In this document: one piece after another, positions 1 to 29,354 of the stretch
How the letters are laid out: each line of letters opens with the position of its first letter
Numbering within the stretch: position 1 is the first letter of the stretch
Source of the DNA: a virus
Lineage: Duplodnaviria; Heunggongvirae; Uroviricota; Caudoviricetes
Reading direction: 5' to 3' (one strand)
IMG/VR virus record: IMGVR_UViG_2706794693_000007
Length of the DNA stretch: 39,432 bases
Position numbers and translations under genes: made by a program
Notes under the pieces: model-generated
What the model was told of the DNA's origin: nothing
Seen by the model: the letters and a program-made list of their open reading frames with translations, nothing else
The model's database searches: none

Positions 1-14
1 TCGGTTTACGGGAA
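1..14. other. Half of a gix-like recombination site (TCGGTTTACGGGAA), truncated by window start
   Basis: Exact reverse complement of the left half of the site at 1306-1331; matches the GGTTTnCnGGAA-type half-site of Gin/Hin/Cin crossover sites as recalled. Confidence 0.5.
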
Positions 15-353
15 ACGGTAAACAGGGCGGCGAATGCCCTGCCATCGGACGGCACCGCCGTTGCCGCGAACAGGCTGGCAAATGCCCACACAATTAATGG
101 TGTTCCCTTTGACGGGACGCAGGATATCACTATCTCATCAGGAACAGTAACCGCCATAAGACTGGGGTCGGTGACCGCACATATGCCCGGAACATGGGAA
201 AGCTGGGATCTGAATCTGGGGGGCGGCAATGTTCTTACCGGAATTAAAGTACAGGATGTCGGTAAGAATACGGCAGATAACGTCGGCGGCGTGTATTACC
301 GGCCGTTGCAGTATCTGTTAAATGGAGCATGGGTGACGGCTGCAAGTATATAA
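1..353 (+). CDS. Tail fibre alternative variable C-terminal segment (S'v-like), 5'-partial, silent in this orientation
   Basis: Frame open from position 2; first ~40 aa ([26 protein letters not shown]...[12 protein letters not shown]) match the minus-strand fibre after its gix site, then diverge; shared C-terminal RPLQ motif. Confidence 0.6.
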   Translation, partial: GLRETVNRAANALPSDGTAVAANRLANAHTINGVPFDGTQDITISSGTVTAIRLGSVTAHMPGTWESWDLNLGGGNVLTGIKVQDVGKNTADNVGGVYYRPLQYLLNGAWVTAASI

Positions 354-384
354 TGATATTCAGAAGGCCTTCCGGCCTTCTTTA

Positions 385-906
385 TTACTGTGGCTGCTCA
401 GGCCATTTAATGGCGTTAAATTCAGCTTCTGTTTTAATGGCGGGTAGTTCCATTTTCTTCACCTGACTGATGTATGCCATCCATTGGGTAAGTGCTGCTC
501 TGTCTTCATCGCTGATGGTGCCCAGTTGTAGCTCCGTTCTCCAGTCATTAATTTTTTCATATGCCTGATTAAGATATGACTGGCGCATTGCTTCCAGTTT
601 TCTTGCGTAGTTAACCGGAATACGGGAGATTATGCCATTATCAAACTTCCAGTTTCCTGAAATATCCGTGCCTTCAGGGAGTTCATCGACCTCAACCACA
701 GAAAACCCCGCAGGATACAGCGCCGAGGCGTCCTGTGATATTGAGCAGATAACGCCGCTGTCAGGTGTTATGCAAAGTTTATATTTTTTGGTGAATAATG
801 GCAGGGATTCGTAGAAATCCTTACCATCTTCACTCTGGAAATACTGAACATTATTACCATATGGCATATTTTCAGGATAATAACGGGTTATATTTTTTAG
901 TTCCAT
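385..906 (-). CDS. Tail fibre assembly protein (Tfa / Mu U-like chaperone)
   Basis: 173 aa; strong RBS AGGAGG upstream of ATG; lies directly downstream of the minus-strand fibre variable part; C-terminal ...KWPEQPQ resembles Tfa family. Confidence 0.75.
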   Translation of the reverse strand: MELKNITRYYPENMPYGNNVQYFQSEDGKDFYESLPLFTKKYKLCITPDSGVICSISQDASALYPAGFSVVEVDELPEGTDISGNWKFDNGIISRIPVNYARKLEAMRQSYLNQAYEKINDWRTELQLGTISDEDRAALTQWMAYISQVKKMELPAIKTEAEFNAIKWPEQPQ

Positions 907-960
907 AAAATCCTCCTGGAAATAAATCTGTTTTAAAATATATTATTTACTGACTATTTA

Positions 961-1537
961 TAACTGAGATACCGTAATCCATGTACCTCCGACTAATTTT
1001 TGCAGGGGTCTGAATGCTATAAAATCGTTTGAAGCATCAACTTTACTGTCAATCTGCAGGCCTGCCATAACATTACCGTACGCAGAGTAATATGCCCCAC
1101 CGTACATTACCTGCCTGTTCTCTGCTCCCAGCCTGATATCCTGGATATATCGGGAATCCGCATCCTGCTGTGTTATACCAGAAGTGATGTTTATGTCCTG
1201 CGTCCCGTCAAAGGGAACCCCATTAATATTTCTTGGGGTGGCGAGTCTATTCGCGGCAACGGCGGTGCCGTCCGATGGCAGAGCATTCGCCGCCCTGTTT
1301 ACCGTTTCCCGTAAACCGACGTTATCGATAAAAGCCCCTTTATCCGGAATGTCTGCGCCGTTCTGCTCCCTGCGCAGGTAACGGTTATCACCTTCGCTTT
1401 TGCTGTAAACATCCAGATTATTACGGGCGGTTCCCTTATTCTCCAGGTCGGCGAGATTCTGATCCTTCGCCAGGGCATTAACGTCAGCGGGACCAAGACT
1501 GTTTTTTGTGGCAAGCGTCCCCAGACCAAGATAACCA
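961..1537 (-). CDS. Tail fibre protein, 3' portion (end of constant part plus variable Sv part); 5' continues at 6894-7275 if the 71-bp overlap is joined
   Basis: Open frame from 1537 to stop at 961-963; translation ...[35 protein letters not shown]...[17 protein letters not shown]; first 71 nt identical to 6894-6964. Confidence 0.75.
1306..1331. other. gix/hix-like 26-bp crossover site (TTCCCGTAAACCGACGTTATCGATAA) inside the tail-fibre gene
   Basis: Two 12-bp imperfect inverted half-sites around a 2-bp core; lies at the constant/variable junction of the fibre gene. Confidence 0.55.
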
Positions 1538-1750: not shown

Positions 1751-2253
1751 GTGCAGGATGTGAGCTGTTTTTCGAAGACAGAATAAGCGGTAAGACAAGG
1801 GAGCGTCCCGGACTTAAACGCGCATTAAAGCGACTCCGGCCAGGGGATACCCTGCTGGTCTGGAAACTGGATCGCCTTGGACGCAGTATGCAGCACCTTG
1901 TCCTTTTAACAGAAGAACTCCGGCAACGCGGCGTTAACTTCCGCAGCATTACGGACAATATTGATACATCCACTCCCATGGGACGTTTCTTTTTCCATAT
2001 AATGGGCGCGCTGGCGGAAATGGAGCGGGAACTCATTATTGAACGTACACGCGCGGGTCTTGCTGCTGCCCGTGCTCAGGGGCGTCATGGCGGCAGACCT
2101 CAGAAACTGACAGAGAAAGAGCGGGAGCAAATCGCCCGTTTGCTGGCTAATGGCGAGTCCCGTAAACAAATCGCACTGATATTTGATATTGGCCTTTCCA
2201 CCCTTTATCGTTATTTTCCTGCCTCACCAGCTCCGTCACCAAAAGTACCGTGA
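1751..2253 (+). CDS. gin: Serine DNA invertase of the Gin/Hin/Cin/Pin family, N-terminal ~24 codons lost in the N-run
   Basis: Translation AGCELFFEDRISGKTRERPGLKRALKRLRPGDTLLVWKLDRLGRSMQHLV...MGRFFFHIMGALAEMERELIIERT...GGRPQKLT closely matches the Gin/Hin resolvase-type catalytic core and C-terminal HTH. Confidence 0.9.
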
Positions 2254-2338
2254 CGCTTTTTTGAATTTCCGCAAAACACATATTTTTCAGCGGTCGCTAT
2301 TCTGACTCTGTTTAATTCAGAAACAGGCAGAAAAGACG

Positions 2339-4393
2339 ATGTCAGACTCCAAGTGGAAAATGCTCTCCGCCATGCCCGGAGAGTTTTCAGTCAAGGTTGC
2401 CGGTGGCACGGTGGCATTTATTGAAAGCCCTTTCCGCCCTTCGGGTAATAAAGGGGGGATCACCTTCGCAGACTGCGTGATCCGCTTCAGCACGAAAGAG
2501 CCATTATGGGTAATGCCGGTATCCGGTAATCCCAGTGCAGAAATCACCAGTTCAGGCGTGACTGGCATCATTCCAATCACATCTGACGTGGCCGGAACGC
2601 TCACGCCCTCCGACTGGAATGCACCGGATAACGCCGGGCCTTCCGGTAGCACGAATGGCAGCAGTTCAGAGCCGGAATATTACTTTGTTGTCATTCTCGC
2701 GGGTCAGTCAAATGGCATGGCCTACGGCGAGGGGCTGCCGTTACCGGATTCGTTTGACCGCCCGGACCCACGCATTAAGCAACTGGCACGCCGCAGTACG
2801 GTAACGCCCAACGGTACGTCGTGTACATACAACGACATCATTCCGGCAGACCACTGCCTGCATGATGTTCAGGATATGAGCGGGATAAACCACCCGAAAG
2901 CTGATCTGGCAAAAGGCCAGTACGGGACTGTCGGTCAGGGGTTGCATATTGCCAAAAAACTGCTTCCCTATATCCCACAGAATGCCGGGATACTTCTGGT
3001 GCCCTGTTGTCGTGGCGGGTCAGCATTCACCACTGGAGCCGACGGCTCATTCAGTGAGGCCAGCGGTGCTTCCGCTGATTCTTCACGCTGGGGGGCCGGT
3101 AAACCTCTGTATCAGGACCTGGTAAGCCGCACCAAAGTCGCGCTGGCGAAAAACCCGAAAAACAAACTTCTGGCTGTGGTCTGGATGCAGGGAGAGGCAG
3201 ACCTTGCCTCAGGAAGCCAGCAGCATAATAGTTTATTCACGGCCATGGTTCAGCAGTTCAGAACTGACCTGGCTCCGCTTGCTGCGCAGTGCGTGAGTGG
3301 AAATGCCACCACGGTGCCGTGGATTTGCGGTGATACCACGTATTACTGGAAAAACGCTGGCACCGATAAATATGAGGCAGTATACGGTGGCTACAAAGGC
3401 AAGGAAGCACAGAAAATTTTCTTTGTACCGTTCCTGACGGATGAGAATGGACAGAGCACGCCAACGAATGCTCCGGCGGAAGACCCGGATATTGTGGCTG
3501 TCGGGTATTACGGTGCAGCATCCCGAACCCAGGGCAGTTTTGTTTCGACACAGCGTGACAGCCATTTCAGCTCATGGGCACGCAGGGGCGTCATTTCAGA
3601 CCGTCTGGCCTCAGCTATTATGCTCCATGCAGGGCGCACGGCTGAACTGATGCGTGGGCAGACCGTGACACCACCGGATGAGAAGCCGTCACCTGATACA
3701 CCATCAAAACCGTCCACGCCACCCGCAGACACCACGACGATGAGTACGCTATTTGCTTACCGGGCATCTGAGTCTGAAGGACGGTTGACACCACAGGGTT
3801 GGGCTGCCGGAGGTGGCAAGGCTCAAATCGTGGATGATGCCGGAGCCAGCGGGGGTAAGGCAATGAAACTGACCAAGGAAACAGGAAGAGCCCCCTGGTA
3901 CCTTGAGCATGATGCTGGTAATGGTGCGGACCTGCTGGGTAAAGGTGGTCTTGTCAGTTGTCGTTTTAAACTCGATGGCGCGCTTACGGCTAATCAGTAC
4001 GCACTGGCGCTGTACTGGCCGGTTTCTGCCCTGCCGCAAGGGGTTACTCTGGAAGGAAATGCCGGTCATAACCTGCTGGCATCGTTCTACGTACAGAGCG
4101 ATGCCACAGACCTTAACGTGATGTATCACAAAGGAAACACGGCGCAGAACACGAAGCTGGGGTCATTCGGCGCATTTAATAACGAATGGCATACGCTGGG
4201 CTTCCGTTTTGCCGGTAACAACAGTATTGAGGTGACGCCGGTCATTGATGGTAAGGACGGGACACCATTCATGCTGTCGCAGTCTCCGGTCGGCACGTTT
4301 ACGGCAGACAAGTTGCGCGTGACCGATATCACTAAAAATGCGACTTACCCGGTACTGATTGACAGTATCGTGGTGGAAGTGAATAACGCGTAA
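2339..4393 (+). CDS. SASA-family (sialate O-acetylesterase-like, NanS-p-like) SGNH hydrolase with N-terminal domain, Pro/Thr-rich linker and C-terminal lectin-like domain
   Basis: 684 aa; motifs YYFVVILAGQSNGMAYGEG (GQSN block) and AVVWMQGEADL (WxQGE(S/A)D block); candidate Asp/His at RDSHFS; linker TPPDEKPSPDTPSKPSTPPADTTT; start codon uncertain (weak RBS). Confidence 0.6.
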   Translation: MSDSKWKMLSAMPGEFSVKVAGGTVAFIESPFRPSGNKGGITFADCVIRFSTKEPLWVMPVSGNPSAEITSSGVTGIIPITSDVAGTLTPSDWNAPDNAGPSGSTNGSSSEPEYYFVVILAGQSNGMAYGEGLPLPDSFDRPDPRIKQLARRSTVTPNGTSCTYNDIIPADHCLHDVQDMSGINHPKADLAKGQYGTVGQGLHIAKKLLPYIPQNAGILLVPCCRGGSAFTTGADGSFSEASGASADSSRWGAGKPLYQDLVSRTKVALAKNPKNKLLAVVWMQGEADLASGSQQHNSLFTAMVQQFRTDLAPLAAQCVSGNATTVPWICGDTTYYWKNAGTDKYEAVYGGYKGKEAQKIFFVPFLTDENGQSTPTNAPAEDPDIVAVGYYGAASRTQGSFVSTQRDSHFSSWARRGVISDRLASAIMLHAGRTAELMRGQTVTPPDEKPSPDTPSKPSTPPADTTTMSTLFAYRASESEGRLTPQGWAAGGGKAQIVDDAGASGGKAMKLTKETGRAPWYLEHDAGNGADLLGKGGLVSCRFKLDGALTANQYALALYWPVSALPQGVTLEGNAGHNLLASFYVQSDATDLNVMYHKGNTAQNTKLGSFGAFNNEWHTLGFRFAGNNSIEVTPVIDGKDGTPFMLSQSPVGTFTADKLRVTDITKNATYPVLIDSIVVEVNNA

Positions 4394-4400
4394 GCAGGAT

Positions 4401-4442
4401 AAAAAAATGCCGCCGGTAAGGGAAAACAAGAAACCGGCGGCA
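4401..4442 (-). terminator. Candidate intrinsic terminator, oriented for the minus strand
   Basis: 9-bp GC-rich stem GCCGCCGGT/ACCGGCGGC with 15-nt loop; run of 7 T follows on the minus strand, only an A-rich tract on the plus strand. Confidence 0.4.
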
Positions 4443-4537
4443 AAAAGATCGTTATATCCAAAGCAAAAAATGCAGTGCACCTTTTTACCTAACAGATATT
4501 ACCGGTGTCAACACCATGTCAATAATTGGGAGGGATA

Positions 4538-4720
4538 ATGACATTTTTACAGCTTATTTTATTGTATTTCTGCACGGCAGTATGTGCGTTATATCTGGTG
4601 AGTGGTGGTTATAAGGCCATCAGAAATTATGTTCGCCGCAAAATTGAGGACGCAGCAGCTGAAAAACTCAGTAAAACAGCGCAGGTAACTCCGCTCCCAA
4701 AAGACCCGACCCAGCCCTGA
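4538..4720 (+). CDS. Small membrane protein (60 aa, one N-terminal TM helix, charged C-terminus), function unknown
   Basis: RBS GGGAGGG 3 nt before ATG at 4538; MTFLQLILLYFCTAVCALYLVSGGYKAIRNY... hydrophobic N-terminus. Confidence 0.5.
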   Translation: MTFLQLILLYFCTAVCALYLVSGGYKAIRNYVRRKIEDAAAEKLSKTAQVTPLPKDPTQP

Positions 4721-4755
4721 TTGCAGGGCTTTATTCCCGCATAAGGAGGATATAC

Positions 4756-5010
4756 ATGCCAGAAATTAAAGGCACCGTCACTGAAGACCTGGTAAAACAG
4801 GCACTGTATTCCGGTGAAGTAAATAAGTTGCTGAAAGCGCAGGTCCGCAAGGATTTTGAGGCACAAATCGACACTTACGTTGATGAAGTGCTGGCAAAAC
4901 TTATTGGGCCAGCAGTTGCGGCCAGTGATGCTGATAATGAGCCGAAAACCGACGCGCAGCCAGAGCAACCAGACCCGGCTCAGCCCGGAACTGACAGTAC
5001 CATGATGTAA
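4756..5010 (+). CDS. Hypothetical 84-aa acidic protein
   Basis: Strong RBS TAAGGAGG 7 nt before ATG; coding-like composition; hairpins downstream. Confidence 0.6.
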   Translation: MPEIKGTVTEDLVKQALYSGEVNKLLKAQVRKDFEAQIDTYVDEVLAKLIGPAVAASDADNEPKTDAQPEQPDPAQPGTDSTMM

Positions 5011-5177
5011 CAATACAAACCGGTGGTGTCCTCTGCCGGTTTGACACTAATGAAAACATCTTTGCCGCTATCCAGCCATATGTAATCGCTGGATAGTATT
5101 TCGTATTCAGAAATATAGCTGCTTATGGAGCAGTCAATCCTGCTTCCCCATCCGGGCAGGCAAATGAACCGGTATCA

Positions 5178-5471
5178 TTAGTCCGATTCACGCTTTTGTA
5201 GAATCGTTCCCAGAATGCTATACAGCTCATTAGCCTGTTGCTCCATCATTGAGACGGAGGCTATACGGTGCAAAGTGATTTCAGGAGGTGGCACACCTCC
5301 ATCTTCTTGCTGTGGAGGAAAAACATAAGATTTAATAAAAAAGTTGAAGCATATGAACTCTCCCGCACTCGAACTGTATTTGCAGGCATCTGAATAATCG
5401 GAAAAATAATCATTATAGATTTCCGCATTTTCAATCATTTTTCGATTTCTCGTCGTTACATGATTGTCCAT
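5178..5471 (-). CDS. Hypothetical 97-aa protein, convergent with the 84-aa gene
   Basis: RBS AAGAGG before ATG at 5471; AT-rich ORF with no recognisable motif. Confidence 0.5.
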   Translation of the reverse strand: MDNHVTTRNRKMIENAEIYNDYFSDYSDACKYSSSAGEFICFNFFIKSYVFPPQQEDGGVPPPEITLHRIASVSMMEQQANELYSILGTILQKRESD

Positions 5472-5594
5472 AGCAGCCTCTTACGCTGGCAATTAACCAA
5501 TTGACTTCTATAAATTAGTTGATTTGTTTGCTTTGCGGTATTCAAATGTACAATCATTCAGCACTTATGCGTTACAGCACCGTTTAAAATTAGT

Positions 5595-5680
5595 GATCAA
5601 ACTCATAAATTTTCGCTAATGACATTTCGTGTTATTTGTTGTATCAATTAAATAAATCAAATCGATCGTTTTTGTCGATC
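5595..5680. promoter_or_regulatory. Upstream regulatory region of com-mom with three GATC (Dam) sites
   Basis: GATC at 5595-5598, 5664-5667, 5677-5680, the last two inside near-direct repeats TCGATCG; Mu mom is known to be controlled through upstream Dam sites. Confidence 0.4.
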
Positions 5681-5727
5681 GATTGAGTGATAAAGATATC
5701 AACAACAAAGCAGGAGGTTATGCGGCC

Positions 5728-5928
5728 ATGTATCGAAACATACGGTGCCGACATTGTAACAAGCTACTGGCACGAGCCAGCTTCAGTTATCTGGAAGTTA
5801 AATGTCCGCGCTGTAAAACCCTCAATCAAATCACATCTCAGAGCGCCACAGAGCACCCCACATACACAAGGAAATCCTGTCGTGGGGAACAGAAAGCAAG
5901 TTACATCCCGTATCATCAGCACGCCTGA
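5728..5928 (+). CDS. com: Com-like zinc-finger translational activator of mom
   Basis: 66 aa; AGGAGG RBS 10 nt upstream; [14 protein letters not shown]...[10 protein letters not shown] with CxxC...CxxC; immediately precedes and overlaps mom as in Mu. Confidence 0.75.
5856..5887 (+). promoter_or_regulatory. Stem-loop sequestering the putative mom start codon (candidate Com target)
   Basis: CCCCAC (5856-5861) pairs with GTGGGG (5882-5887); the 20-nt loop contains AAGGA; GTG at 5882 is in the mom frame. Confidence 0.45.
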
Positions 5929-6619
5929 ACTTATTCACTATAACGACAATATCGTCGGTTATGGCTCCCGTGAGTTACGGGTTGAGACAATAAGTTGCTG
6001 GCTGGCCCGGCTGGTCGTCGTCAATAAACATTACAGCCATCGTTTCGTAAATAATTCCTACCTTCATCTGGGCATATTTTCAGAACGGGAGCTGGTTGGC
6101 GTAATGCAATGGGGTTATGCCCTTAATCCAAACAATGGTGCACGCGTCGTAACTGGCACGCAGAACCGCGAATATATGGAGCTTAACCGGTTATGGCTGC
6201 ATGACTGTATGCCGAGAAACTCCGAATCAAGGGCAATCAGTTACGCGCTCAAACTAATCAGACAACTTTATCCGCAGGTGCAGTGGGTTCAGTCGTTTGC
6301 AGATGAGCGTTGTGGCTGTCTTGGTGTCGTGTACCAGGCAAGCAATTTTGATTATGTAGGCAGTCATGAAACAACATTCTATGAACTTGATGGCGAGTGG
6401 TATCACGAGATTTGCAAGAATGCAATCAAACGAGGAGGACAGCGAGGTGAACATCTGCGGGCTAATATCGACAGAGCCAGTGTTCATAAATTCCGTCAGT
6501 TTCGTTACATCCGGTTTCTGGACAAGAGAGCCAGAAAACGCCTTAACACAAAGCTATTCAAAGTCCAGCCTTACCCAAAACCACAAACAGTTAAAACTGG
6601 TTTGAAAGAGAGTGAATGA
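5882..6619 (+). CDS. mom: Mom-like DNA adenine modification protein; start assigned to GTG 5882, uncertain
   Basis: Long ORF in the frame overlapping the 3' end of com; com-mom architecture, size about 245 aa; no ATG between com and residue ~130 so a non-ATG start is required. Confidence 0.65.
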
Positions 6620-6664
6620 ACGCTTAAAAACTCATTCTAAAACTCAAAAGAAAAGCGCCGATTT

Positions 6665-6681
6665 AGTATCAAATAAGTTGC
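6665..6681 (+). repeat. Prophage end-like repeat (GTATCAAATAAGTTGCG) just downstream of mom
   Basis: 17-nt near-match to GTATCAAATGAGTTGCC at 38755-38771 and to repeats at 38817 and 38902; preceded by GCCGATTT as at 38767. Confidence 0.45.
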
Positions 6682-6691
6682 GTATCGGCGT

Positions 6692-6893
6692 NNNNNNNNN
6701 NNNNNNNNNNNNNNNNNNNNNNNNNNNNNNNNNNNNNNNNNNNNNNNNNNNNNNNNNNNNNNNNNNNNNNNNNNNNNNNNNNNNNNNNNNNNNNNNNNNN
6801 NNNNNNNNNNNNNNNNNNNNNNNNNNNNNNNNNNNNNNNNNNNNNNNNNNNNNNNNNNNNNNNNNNNNNNNNNNNNNNNNNNNNNNNNNNNNN
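6692..6893. other. Run of 202 N (unresolved or masked)
   Basis: N characters in sequence. Confidence 0.95.
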
Positions 6894-7275
6894 TCGCCAG
6901 GGCATTAACGTCAGCGGGACCAAGACTGTTTTTTGTGGCAAGCGTCCCCAGACCAAGATAACCACGGGCCAGACGCTGGGCCTCCGCACCGGCATCAGCA
7001 ATTTCTTTCAGGTTATTTTTCCGGGAAAAGGCATTCGCAGCGATAATGGCTTTAATGGACAGCGTAAGCTGGTTTAACTGCGCCTTATCCGGCTGAATAC
7101 TGGCTTCAGCCAGAATATTCAGCAGTTCGGCCTGGAGAATATTCAGCCAGTCCTGACCAATCCAGCTGATACCTTTTTGTCCGTCACCTTCGGTAAACCA
7201 GGTGGTGGTATTACTCTGCGCCGGTGCCAGCGCAGGCATATTCGCCACGCCGGAATTATTATCAACATGAAACAT
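6894..7275 (-). CDS. Tail fibre protein, N-terminal constant part (Sc), 3' end runs into N-run
   Basis: ATG at 7275 overlapping upstream stop; MFHVDNNSGVANMPALAPAQ...[24 protein letters not shown]; last 71 nt identical to 1467-1537. Confidence 0.75.
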
Positions 7276-7835
7276 TAAATAGTCTCCTCTTCATGGCTGT
7301 TTGCATAAACGTAAATAAACGTCTGCCATGCAGGCTTATAACGGTTCAGAATACATTCCAGCGCACCGCCTTCATAAATACGCAGCGGCGTGAGAATATC
7401 ATCCAGCACATTCATATTCCGGTAGCCGGTTTCACTGTTAATCGTGACAATACTGACCCACTGCGAATCCGGTGAGGGCTGAATGTCAATCTGATAACCA
7501 AACTCCGCCGCAAACCGGATATAAAATTCACGGTTCAGCGAGGGCTTCATCCGGTATTTATTTCCGGCATAACGCTGTCGCTCCGTGAGGGTGGCTCCGG
7601 CCATATCACACTCGGGAAGCCCGAGATAACGCTCCCAGTCTTCCAGCAGCAGGCGCGACGTGTCAGGGAAACGCTCGGCAAGCAGCTGTTTACCCGTCCA
7701 GGATACACGCGCTGTCGAATGACTGAGGCCCAGACATAATGATGCCAGTACGGATGACGGACGCTTGTCCCATGCCAGCCCGTCAGGCAGTAACTGCAAC
7801 AGGGCGCGCTGATGCGGGGTCAGGGTTACAGCCAT
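7275..7835 (-). CDS. Tail/baseplate protein (Mu gp48-like, P2 gpI-like)
   Basis: 186 aa, position between baseplate J-like gene and tail fibre; overlapping stop/start. Confidence 0.7.
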   Translation of the reverse strand: MAVTLTPHQRALLQLLPDGLAWDKRPSSVLASLCLGLSHSTARVSWTGKQLLAERFPDTSRLLLEDWERYLGLPECDMAGATLTERQRYAGNKYRMKPSLNREFYIRFAAEFGYQIDIQPSPDSQWVSIVTINSETGYRNMNVLDDILTPLRIYEGGALECILNRYKPAWQTFIYVYANSHEEETI

Positions 7836-11066: not shown

Positions 11067-12408
11067 TGATCACCTCCACGCTGCGGCCACCCGGAACAAA
11101 AACCGGATCGGGGATATTGTTTCTGCGGACAAAATACTGCCAGCGACTGCTGTTGCCGGTGGCACGGTACAGCGTGACCAGTGCCGGTTCGGTGGTGCGA
11201 ACCATGACCTGAAAAGCACCGGGAAGATGCACGCTCCGTGTGGTTAAATCTTCTGTCAGCGCAAGCCCTGCATCACGTAATGCAAGGGCAGTCCCGGTAT
11301 AGCCCTGTGCGGACAGATCCAGCACCTGTTGTTCCATGGCATCGCTCAAATCCCGGTTGATACGCTGCACATCAGCAGAACTTTCCAGCCAGGCCAGTCC
11401 GCCCGAACGGTCAGTATCCTGAACGTGCGTCGTATTCTGCCGGATGACCTGATCCAGCAGTTTTCCGAGCGTCTGTGCCTGCGACACCAGGGTTGCACTC
11501 TGCATCACGCTCCGCAGCAGACGGATATTTTTCTGTGCCGCAGGCGTCAGGCCAATCAGGCGCTGTGGATCATCCTGTTCGCTGAGGGTGTAACGCAGGG
11601 AGGAAAGTGTGCGGTACAGCTGCGGCATGGCCTGCTCTGCCATGCTGTCACGGTTTGTGGTCAGGCTGCCGGACGGCGTTCCGGCTTTTCCGGTCAGAGA
11701 CAGGGAAGGATCGCCGGGCAGCCCGGTCAGCACGGCAAACATTCCGGCCAGCGATTCAGCCATGCGACGGGGCGCATTAATCAGGGCGGCGGCATTGCCT
11801 TTCAGGGCAGTAAAACTGGCCGTAAAGGCACTGATATCCTGCACAATCCCCATCCCCGAAACGGCATTCTCCAGTGCATCAATCTTATCGCTGATGGTGT
11901 CGGTCATGGCCTGTACATCATGCAGACCGTCTGAAATCACCGTCCAGCCGTCTGAAAGCGTGTTAAACAGCTGATTCATTGCTGAGCCGCTTTTCTGCTC
12001 CAGCGCAGCTGCCGTATCTTCTGCCACCGCAGGGGCGGTATCGTCACTGGCGGGGATCACGTTGATCGTGAACTCAACCGTTCCCTGCTCGCTGGCGTTA
12101 TAACGGCTTTCAAAGCTGTTTATCAGCACGTTTAACGTGCCGTAATCCGGGTGCATCAGTTCACCGGCACCGGGTGCACGCAGCGCATCACGCAGGCGGC
12201 TTCGCTGTGTCTGAAGATCGTCTCCGGTCACCAGAACCGTGAATGTGAACTCCGGGAGTTTTGGCCCCAGATCATCCGCACCGCCGCTTTCACGCAGTGG
12301 GTATTCACGGCGCACAATGTTACGTCCGCCCCGTTCCCGCTGCTCCTGATAAACCAGGAACGGTACGCCACGAAAGGAGCCACGCCCCGGCGTGTCAGTA
12401 GAGGCCAT
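11050..12408 (-). CDS. DNA circulation protein (Mu N-like tail protein)
   Basis: 452 aa, follows tape measure gene. Confidence 0.7.
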   Translation of the reverse strand: MASTDTPGRGSFRGVPFLVYQEQRERGGRNIVRREYPLRESGGADDLGPKLPEFTFTVLVTGDDLQTQRSRLRDALRAPGAGELMHPDYGTLNVLINSFESRYNASEQGTVEFTINVIPASDDTAPAVAEDTAAALEQKSGSAMNQLFNTLSDGWTVISDGLHDVQAMTDTISDKIDALENAVSGMGIVQDISAFTASFTALKGNAAALINAPRRMAESLAGMFAVLTGLPGDPSLSLTGKAGTPSGSLTTNRDSMAEQAMPQLYRTLSSLRYTLSEQDDPQRLIGLTPAAQKNIRLLRSVMQSATLVSQAQTLGKLLDQVIRQNTTHVQDTDRSGGLAWLESSADVQRINRDLSDAMEQQVLDLSAQGYTGTALALRDAGLALTEDLTTRSVHLPGAFQVMVRTTEPALVTLYRATGNSSRWQYFVRRNNIPDPVFVPGGRSVEVISEQQD

Positions 12409-14909: not shown

Positions 14910-15161
14910 NNNNNNNNNNNNNNNNNNNNNNNNNNNNNNNNNNNNNNNNNNNNNNNNNNNNNNNNNNNNNNNNNNNNNNNNNNNNNNNNNNNNNNNNNNN
15001 NNNNNNNNNNNNNNNNNNNNNNNNNNNNNNNNNNNNNNNNNNNNNNNNNNNNNNNNNNNNNNNNNNNNNNNNNNNNNNNNNNNNNNNNNNNNNNNNNNNN
15101 NNNNNNNNNNNNNNNNNNNNNNNNNNNNNNNNNNNNNNNNNNNNNNNNNNNNNNNNNNNNN
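14910..15161. other. Run of 252 N (unresolved or masked) spanning the end of the tail tube gene and the start of the chaperone gene
   Basis: N characters in sequence. Confidence 0.95.
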
Positions 15162-20698: not shown

Positions 20699-20875
20699 AC
20701 CGGCAGCATAAGCCGGGTATTTTTGGGGCTGGTTTTGCGGGACTTCAGAAAGTGCTGACAGGGGGGGAATGAGAAAGGCGCTTCACGCAGATTTTAAAGC
20801 CCGTTAAATACAGGTTAGAAAATCACGACACGCGCCTGAAGGGGGTAAGGTAATACGTTTGCATACCTTAAACCA

Positions 20876-28860: not shown

Positions 28861-28931
28861 TGTTACGCTGTCTCATGGTGTTCTCTGAGTCAGCGTAACC
28901 GTGAGGAAAAGGGGGCAGGATTTGCGGAATA

Positions 28932-29354
28932 TCAGAAAAGCCGTGGCTGCGTGCGTTCCTGATGCAGGCGACGCTGGTTGCGGATAACGGAGTAAATCTG
29001 CGTCTCTGACATCTGGTAGTGGCGGCGCAGGGTTTCAATTTTTTCGCCCTGGCTCCAGCGGGAAAAAATTTCATTATTGCGCAGTTCGGTGAAAAGGGAT
29101 TCACCGACCGGGAGATAATAACCACGCCCGCCCATGTACCCGGCCTGTGCGGCTGCAACCTTACGGGCAAGCATTCCCGCCTGAGCAGGTTCAATCCCCT
29201 GACGGTGCAGTTCAGCACTGATCACATCAACCAGGTCCCGCAGCGTGCCGGGCCAGTTCTTTTTCAGCTCATCATCAGGAATATCATCCAGACGGTCAAT
29301 CAGCGCGTGCAGCTGTTCGCTGTCACCAAACATGCTCATCTGTGTTTCAGCCAT
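28932..29354 (-). CDS. Mor/C-family transcriptional activator of middle/late genes
   Basis: 140 aa; C-terminal HTH FSRWSQGEKIETLRRHYQMSETQIYSVIR; located between GemA-like gene and lysis genes. Confidence 0.75.
   Translation of the reverse strand: MAETQMSMFGDSEQLHALIDRLDDIPDDELKKNWPGTLRDLVDVISAELHRQGIEPAQAGMLARKVAAAQAGYMGGRGYYLPVGESLFTELRNNEIFSRWSQGEKIETLRRHYQMSETQIYSVIRNQRRLHQERTQPRLF

Follow-up and report, generated by a model that had tools for sequence, protein, structure and literature searches.

The locus examined here raises the question of how an invertible tail-fibre segment with two alternative fibre tips can operate with only one gene for a tail-fibre assembly (Tfa) chaperone, and which of the tips that chaperone serves. 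Tfa chaperones are usually treated as matched partners of their tips, a practical obstacle in fibre swaps intended to re-target phages and tailocins. The stretch of DNA that was analysed, hereafter referred to as the window, is 39,432 nucleotides long and contains a Mu-like transposable prophage of E. coli, which runs on the minus strand from the transposase to the baseplate genes, from ~38.7 kb down to 6.9 kb. A first-pass annotation of the window had set its single chaperone gene against Mu-type segments, which carry one for each fibre variant, and had proposed that either the alternative tip needs no chaperone or one orientation yields a non-functional fibre. The contrast with Mu-type segments stands, at least for the S-U-U'-S' arrangement of SfMu, and a segment in which two tips have one chaperone between them is a genuine and conserved variation on the Mu G-segment switch. 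No account of such a one-chaperone asymmetry was found in the literature that we searched.

Organization of the invertible segment

Window positions 1-1319 are a Gin/gix invertible segment of 1.32 kb, with two convergent fibre tips and one tfa. It is flanked by two inverted 26-bp crossover sites with a central dinucleotide, and the relevant features of the window are as follows.

1-14: inner half of the left gix (central TC at 1-2, half-site GGTTTACGGGAA at 3-14); left boundary of the segment and end of the contig; full site seen in the related locus L002
1-79: left inverted-repeat arm (95% complementarity with 1241-1319), made up of the gix half and coding sequence common to both tips
3-353, plus strand: SvA, alternative fibre 3' end (116 codons plus stop, stop at 351-353), classed with Mu S'/SfMu S'; silent in the orientation assembled, no tfa behind it
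362-381: GC-rich hairpin common to both convergent genes, with a T-rich tail on the SvA strand (-17.3 and -14.8 kcal/mol; z -3.1 and -2.9)
385-906, minus strand: tfa, the sole tail-fibre assembly gene of the segment (ATG at 906, stop at 385-387; 173 aa)
907-957, minus strand: tip-tfa spacer, 51 nt, AT-rich, with Shine-Dalgarno GGAGG, between the SvB stop and the tfa ATG
958-1317, minus strand: SvB, alternative fibre 3' end, in frame with the constant part Sc in this assembly and followed by tfa
1306-1331: second gix, centre 1318-1319 (minus-strand TTATCGATAACG-TC-GGTTTACGGGAA), inside the fibre reading frame at ..IDNVGLRE..
1320-1537, minus strand: Sc residues 105-177; bases 1467-1537 duplicate 6894-6964, which shows the true join to the contig starting at 6894
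1751-2253, plus strand: serine invertase of the gin type, residues 25-190 (1753-2250 matches the intact L002 protein at 100%); 5' end lost in the gap 1538-1750
6894-7275, minus strand: Sc residues 1-127, beginning with the start codon at 7275 and immediately following the baseplate gene gp48/YmfQ (7275-7835)

The full left gix in L002 reads TTCCTGAAAACC-TC-GGTTTACGGGAA, and the gix sites here resemble the Mu gix consensus. The invertase of L002 matches the Resolvase (1.6e-51) and HTH_7 (4.9e-15) domains, and in complete genomes the invertase adjoins the segment, whereas the window scaffold is mis-ordered at that place. The part of gin that is visible in the window is free of frameshifts. In E. 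coli DLI.5a and TOE17, the adjacent invertase is frameshifted (L001 8352-8923 and L004 6352-6923), and SvB is therefore probably fixed in the on state in those copies.

The constant fibre part Sc comprises 177 residues, to which either tip adds about 115, and both possible fusions are intact open reading frames (Sc-SvA, 293 aa; Sc-SvB, 296 aa). With SvA on, 31 nt separate the end of the fibre gene from the convergent tfa stop, and SvB is without a start codon. The placement of tfa on the minus strand, behind the minus-strand tip only, was correctly described in the first-pass annotation, and the gene is identified by a match to Pfam Caudo_TAP PF02413 (4.8e-19, 69.2 bits against a gathering cut-off of 22.1), a match to PHROG 136 at 4.7e-56, and a match to Mu U (PDB 5YVQ_B, E 4.2e-16), in which query residues 18-153 are aligned to chain residues 24-164 and the fibre-binding N-domain is covered. 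The observation that the plus-strand variant stops 31 bp short of the convergent tfa stop was likewise accurate (stop 351-353, gap 354-384). The accompanying claim that this variant has no chaperone gene of its own withstood a sensitive search as well: when a profile of seven diverse Tfa proteins was compared with 54 six-frame fragments of 1-1537, the known tfa alone matched (E 9.8e-81) and the rest had E > 2. An antisense open reading frame within tfa (632-814, plus strand) was considered as a hidden SvA chaperone and rejected; it merely mirrors the conserved gene, and selection acts on the tfa frame.

Assembly of the window

The window contains three runs of N (1538-1750, 6692-6893, and 14910-15161). 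They might be taken for masks of the same length as the sequence they replace, but this was ruled out by three observations: the third run spans 252 nt, versus 242 nt in close relatives; the join of the mom end to the constant fibre part (window 6620-6894) is absent from all complete E. coli genomes searched; and bases 1467-1537 are identical to 6894-6964, a 71-nt overlap of two contigs. The window is therefore a mis-ordered scaffold of at least four contigs, one of which (1751-6691, from gin to mom, the right end of the prophage) is misplaced and inverted. In the real order, 1751-6691 comes first as its reverse complement and is followed by 1-1537 and by 6965 onward; this is the order found in TOE17 and DLI.5a.

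Window 1-1537 is 100% identical to these same two complete genomes, both of which have gin 77 nt to the left of position 1; flipped genomes have the constant fibre part at that place, and a second tfa is present in neither arrangement. The first contig begins exactly at the gix crossover, positions 1-2 being the central TC, and the plus-strand variant is therefore complete from the crossover onward. A contig break at the crossover fits a mixed culture in which both orientations were present.

Conservation of the single-tfa layout among related prophages

Members of this prophage family occur in about 230 of the 5,426 complete E. coli genomes, Shiga-toxin-producing strains among them, and some hosts (TOE17, DLI.5a, JE86-ST05) have at least two copies. 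At 93-100% identity, the segment itself is found in 20 complete E. coli genomes, five with SvB on and tfa downstream and 15 flipped with SvA on; both orientations are represented among copies that are 99.4-100% identical. From this genome comparison, it is apparent that inversion occurs and that it swaps the in-frame fibre 3' ends. Further loci were collected by scanning viral contigs and species-representative genomes for the constant fibre part, as well as by later searches, and were mapped by tblastn. Comparison with related Mu-like prophages, a check that the first-pass annotation had suggested, thereby revealed the single-tfa layout in about 35 related loci, with three tip/tfa allele sets and both orientations. 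The mapped loci include 16 with SvA on and eight with SvB on, in the allele combinations A1/B1, A2/B2, and A2/B3; in all 24 of these invertible loci the single tfa lies behind the B-type tip, and none has two full tfa genes. The tfa alleles are either 60-62% or 86-100% identical to that of the window, and the gene is intact in 33 of the 33 cases extracted. The tip-tfa spacer measures 51, 77, or about 122 nt in the three allele types, as opposed to 1-2 nt in SfMu. With such a long spacer and its own Shine-Dalgarno sequence, tfa translation is therefore uncoupled from the tip gene; the spacer also has room for a weak promoter, although this proves nothing. The canonical S-U-U'-S' layout is kept in SfMu and in a more distant relative (L043).

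The two tips are, by homology, predicted C-terminal receptor-binding domains of the Mu S/S' family. SvB matches residues 435-502 of Mu S (i-E 1e-4), and SvA matches SfMu S' (4e-16) and a tip from a P1 relative (3e-19, 52% identity). Their alignment reveals a terminal motif common to both, [YF]RP[LV]Q-x5-W-T. A-type tips are 48-59% identical to SfMu S', and B3 is 61% identical to Mu S. The three B tips are only 39-47% identical among themselves, no closer than they are to the A tips (36-53%), and the SvA alleles are 41-53% identical to each other with the reading frame kept. Nei-Gojobori dN/dS estimates are 0.07-0.15 for SvA, with dS up to about 1.4, 0.11-0.2 for well-diverged pairs of SvB, and 0.1-0.23 for tfa; SvA, SvB, and tfa are all under purifying selection. 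By these measures, SvA would clearly be functional and no decayed remnant. The suggestion that the plus-strand orientation gives a non-functional fibre, or that this variant has decayed, is accordingly disfavoured by the intact 293-aa Sc-SvA fusion of 15 complete genomes and by the low dN/dS of SvA.

Occasional tip frameshifts are found, in SvA in L011 and in SvB in L050. In one rearranged locus, in the second prophage copy of TOE17 (L003 4600-5900), a C-terminal piece of tfa and a tfa truncated at its 5' end lie on opposite strands, together with an SvB::SvA chimera that is out of frame; this copy is decaying, and the prophage there also lacks part of the tail genes. These three cases are ordinary prophage decay. 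The one-tfa asymmetry, judged from its recurrence across the loci described above, is a conserved trait, not an accident or the outcome of decay.

Relationship to known fibre switches

The segment resembles the Mu G segment with Gin and SfMu orf49-53 in its genome position between gp47/gp48 and gin-com-mom. The constant fibre part is homologous to that of Mu (Mu S 1-191, E 2e-44), gix occupies the equivalent place in the reading frame (..GL[QR]ETVN..), the tips are homologous to the C-terminal domains of Mu S and S', and Tfa is homologous to U. The differences from Mu are equally evident: the segment is 1.32 kb long rather than about 3 kb, its variable parts have about 115 rather than about 320 aa, and it has a single tfa, whereas Mu has two, U and U'. 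More generally, Mu-type segments have one tfa per fibre variant (S-U / U'-S'), an arrangement found in SfMu but not here. The tip-tfa spacer of 51-122 nt with its own Shine-Dalgarno sequence also differs from the 1-2 nt of Mu and SfMu. In EPEC E2348/69, inversion of a Mu prophage locus in culture has been reported from experiments (PMC4272514).

Other serine invertase systems offer partial parallels. As in the P1 C segment with Cin and the e14 P segment with Pin, a serine invertase swaps tail-fibre 3' ends, and the SvA-like tip of a P1 relative (52%) extends the resemblance. The P1 C segment and the e14 P segment have a tfa for each variant. The carotovoricin Er/Ein inversion (Nguyen et al. 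2001, as cited in PMC13195805 and PMC4272514) is similar in that the invertase swaps only the C-terminal end of the fibre within a small segment. Unlike this prophage, carotovoricin Er is a tailocin and not a Mu-like phage. Its segment is about 0.8 kb and too small for a chaperone gene, such that any chaperone would lie outside and be shared.

A second asymmetric case is found in a more distantly related Mu-like prophage of C. braakii ATCC 51113 (L069 6001-9871). Its expressed fibre of 472 aa has no tfa behind it and converges on a single tfa located behind the alternative, A-class tip, beside an invertase. In contrast to the window, the tfa here belongs to an A-class tip and the chaperone consists of a Caudo_TAP N-part plus DUF4376 (229 aa); the constant part is 74% identical. 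Two further systems, Rac-SA53 tail1/tail2 and phage 186 K/orf, resemble the window in the Tfa N-domain (61% and 53%, respectively) and, in the case of Rac-SA53, in having an A2-like fibre tip. They differ from it in having neither an invertase nor an alternative tip, and in the tight coupling of tfa, which follows 2 nt after the fibre gene. Phage 186 gene K also contains an annotated relic, a 'Mu-like inversion crossover site' (L087 909-934). This relic site and the 53% N-domain identity fit repeated exchange of tip-plus-tfa modules between P2-like and Mu-like phages.

Tfa specificity

The N-domain of Mu U binds the fibre tip and has been described as the variable, specific part of the protein (PMC9608196). 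The model of North et al. 2019, as summarised in PMC9608196, accordingly has a variable, tip-specific N-domain and a conserved C-domain. The Tfa proteins of this clade follow a different pattern, in which the N-domain is conserved beside B1, B2, and B3, while the C-domain is divergent. Moreover, two Tfa classes pair freely with A1, A2, B1, B2, and B3. Since the N-domain is conserved across B tips as dissimilar as 39-47% identity and pairing is free, the Tfa of this clade looks like a generalist.

Relatives outside the Mu-like family point in a similar direction. In an N-domain search, the nearest were Rac-SA53 (61% identity), phage 186 (53%), and the POP15 group (40%). The tfa of Rac-SA53, 49% identical overall, starts 2 nt after a fibre gene whose tip is A2-like, with 64% identity to A2 (E 3e-35), 40% to A1 of the window (E 1e-16), and no significant match to B1 (E 0.14). 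POP15 has the same pairing, with tfa directly behind an SvA-type tip. Indeed, every A-class tip that was checked elsewhere has a tfa in cis (SfMu, the C. braakii prophage, POP15, pPE4, and 19-1-2). Since the A-class tips examined elsewhere are always accompanied by a tfa, one of this Tfa family, the tip that lacks a chaperone gene here belongs to a chaperone-bearing kind, and these pairings suggest that this Tfa family is competent for A-type tips. The earlier proposal that the alternative tip needs no chaperone thereby loses weight but keeps some probability, given the presence of a tfa in cis of SvA-class tips in these five other phages and prophages and the position of the Rac-SA53 tfa, the closest non-Mu relative, directly behind such a tip.

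Expression of tfa when SvA is on

We searched the present locus for a promoter that might drive tfa when SvA is on. In Mu, whichever half of the G segment lies inverted is silent. Sigma-70 scans of the window, L002, L006, and L029 gave nothing at or above 9/12 upstream of tfa on its own strand in the invertible forms, and the counts were at chance level. The best candidate found by eye in a spacer is GTTATA-16-TATATT, which scores 8/12 and lies in the 51-nt spacer. A second type of promoter was sought with a matrix derived from the prophage itself. A late box, TTTCTGA..T.CCGCAAA.CC.GCCCC followed 30 nt later by TA[CT]GCT, occurs on the minus strand at 28910-28940, 20723-20753, and 11111-11141, preceding the lysozyme, head protease, and baseplate genes, respectively; the three sites presumably mark Plys, PI, and PP, the late, C-dependent promoters of the prophage. 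The matrix derived from the three sites scores 23-32 bits there, while its maximum was 8.8 bits within the type I (window-type) segment and 11.9 bits in other alleles, with no match placed to drive tfa; the box itself is missing upstream of tfa. A sequence shared by the mom upstream region and the type III spacer, TCAGCAC...TATGCGTTA, was attributed to chance, as the window contains seven matches versus 6.8 expected and none were found in other loci.

Derivatives retaining only the SvA tip

A single ancestral deletion took SvB, one gix, and about 500 nt (most) of gin, leaving Sc-SvA and the convergent tfa. The exact deletion junction was found in E. coli CI5, eight IMG/VR contigs, and three metagenome contigs (frozen loci L031 6914-7760, L015-L017, L019, L022, L024, L084-L086, and E. 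coli CI5). We rejected an initial reading in which the frozen form is the majority form in E. coli, since most of the matches are partial tfa in other alleles of the prophage family and the exact junction occurs in few genomes. The frozen derivatives have only tip A1 or A2 and are found in several hosts, and tfa is full-length in all ten frozen contigs in which the gene is present. A sigma-70-like sequence, ATGATA-17-TATAAT (10/12), lies on the tfa strand at the deletion junction, although its -35 is weaker (ACGATA) in three of five alleles. The tfa genes of the frozen forms vary more than the junction does, and their variation may therefore have been imported by recombination; for this reason, their low dN/dS is not clean evidence of selection. 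The frozen forms support a role for Tfa with SvA, although the evidence is not clean.

Competing explanations for the asymmetry

The first steps of a working model are established by the data above: a Gin-type invertase flips the 1.32-kb segment between the gix in the fibre gene and the gix beside gin, and flipping joins the 177 residues of Sc to SvA or SvB, as a host-range switch. The further steps are proposed. With SvB on, tfa would be co-transcribed behind SvB from the late fibre operon, and with SvA on, it lies antisense to that operon, in which case Tfa might be supplied from a weak promoter on its own strand or from sister copies flipped during replication. One generalist Tfa would fold both tips, presumably via their common C-terminal motif. 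That one shared Tfa serves both tips is the reading that we tentatively prefer, while giving it slightly less than even credence. Its transcriptional counterpart, in which tfa is expressed in either orientation from a promoter in the spacer or in the silent tip and one promiscuous chaperone attends to both tips, seems to us just as possible, and likewise a little short of probable. A different view, which we consider rather unlikely while giving it real weight, is that Tfa serves SvB only and that SvA trimerises unaided, in which case the switch would alternate between SvB fibres assisted, and possibly capped, by Tfa and SvA fibres that are bare. The gene order is most simply read in this way, tfa being located behind the B-type tip alone in every invertible locus, and such a view is consistent with our finding neither a sigma-70-like nor a late-type promoter for tfa with SvA on, as well as with the clear signs that SvA is functional (the intact fusion and low dN/dS). 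Furthermore, Mu Tfa is retained by the mature fibre (PMC9608196), and adsorption could therefore be altered simply by whether Tfa is there or not. Such a division of labor is nonetheless difficult to reconcile with the common fold family and C-terminal motif of SvA and SvB, with the tfa in cis of every A-class tip checked elsewhere, with the nearest Tfa relatives outside Mu-like prophages (Rac-SA53 and POP15) being cis partners of A-class tips, and with the intact tfa in 10 of 10 contigs of the derivatives that have SvA as their sole tip.

It could also be that SvA needs Tfa and that the element does not supply it when SvA is on, in which case particles would be fibre-defective unless Tfa came in trans from a second copy or another prophage. 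The multiple copies of the family in TOE17, DLI.5a, and JE86-ST05 and the many tfa genes of E. coli genomes would provide such sources, the Tfa looks promiscuous, and no promoter was found for the SvA-on state. We nevertheless regard this scenario as improbable: strong purifying selection on SvA across deep divergence would be hard to sustain on chance co-residents, and SvA-only derivatives persist in several hosts with two SvA alleles. Finally, one might suspect an artefact or a recent decay, with a second tfa lying beyond the window edge or lost in this genome alone, especially as the first base of the window already falls within the invertible region and the scaffold is mis-ordered and interrupted by N gaps. 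We regard this as excluded, given that 1-1537 is 100% identical to two complete genomes, with gin 77 nt to the left or, in flipped genomes, the constant fibre part, that the profile search yielded no second tfa, and that the layout recurs in about 35 loci with diverged alleles. The remaining probability falls to mechanisms beyond these four readings.

Whichever tip or tips the chaperone serves, the prophage family lends itself to a natural test on a small scale, combining a pair of homologous tips, each of about 115 residues, with a single Tfa of 173 residues; the natural derivatives add forms with only the tip that lacks its own chaperone gene. If Tfa is shared, as we tentatively prefer, the segment would be a 'shared-chaperone' host-range switch, and Tfa specificity could then be set by a conserved motif in the C-terminal part of the tips, without matched pairing. 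If tfa is truly silent with SvA on, SvA would represent a natural exception, independent of Tfa, in a tip family that otherwise depends on it, and if SvA folds alone, it would reveal what makes a tip chaperone-dependent.

Additional genes between gin and com

Unlike Mu and SfMu, the prophage has extra genes between gin and com. Three small ones lie between the largest of them and com (4526-4720, 4756-5010, and, on the minus strand, 5178-5471); they correspond to DUF1378, DUF826, and a minus-strand hypothetical gene and have no SfMu counterparts. The largest (2339-4393, plus strand) encodes a protein of 684 aa with a sialate-O-acetylesterase-like SASA domain and DUF6645. SfMu is without this gene, and to our knowledge it is absent from Mu as well. 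Between the gin stop and 2339-4393 there is a late-box match, CTTTTTTGAATTTCCGCAAAACAC, at 2256-2286 on the plus strand, whose CCGCA core is followed by TATTCT at a distance of 29 nt. The gene product resembles a carbohydrate esterase expressed late, and it might serve as a second factor acting on the host surface.
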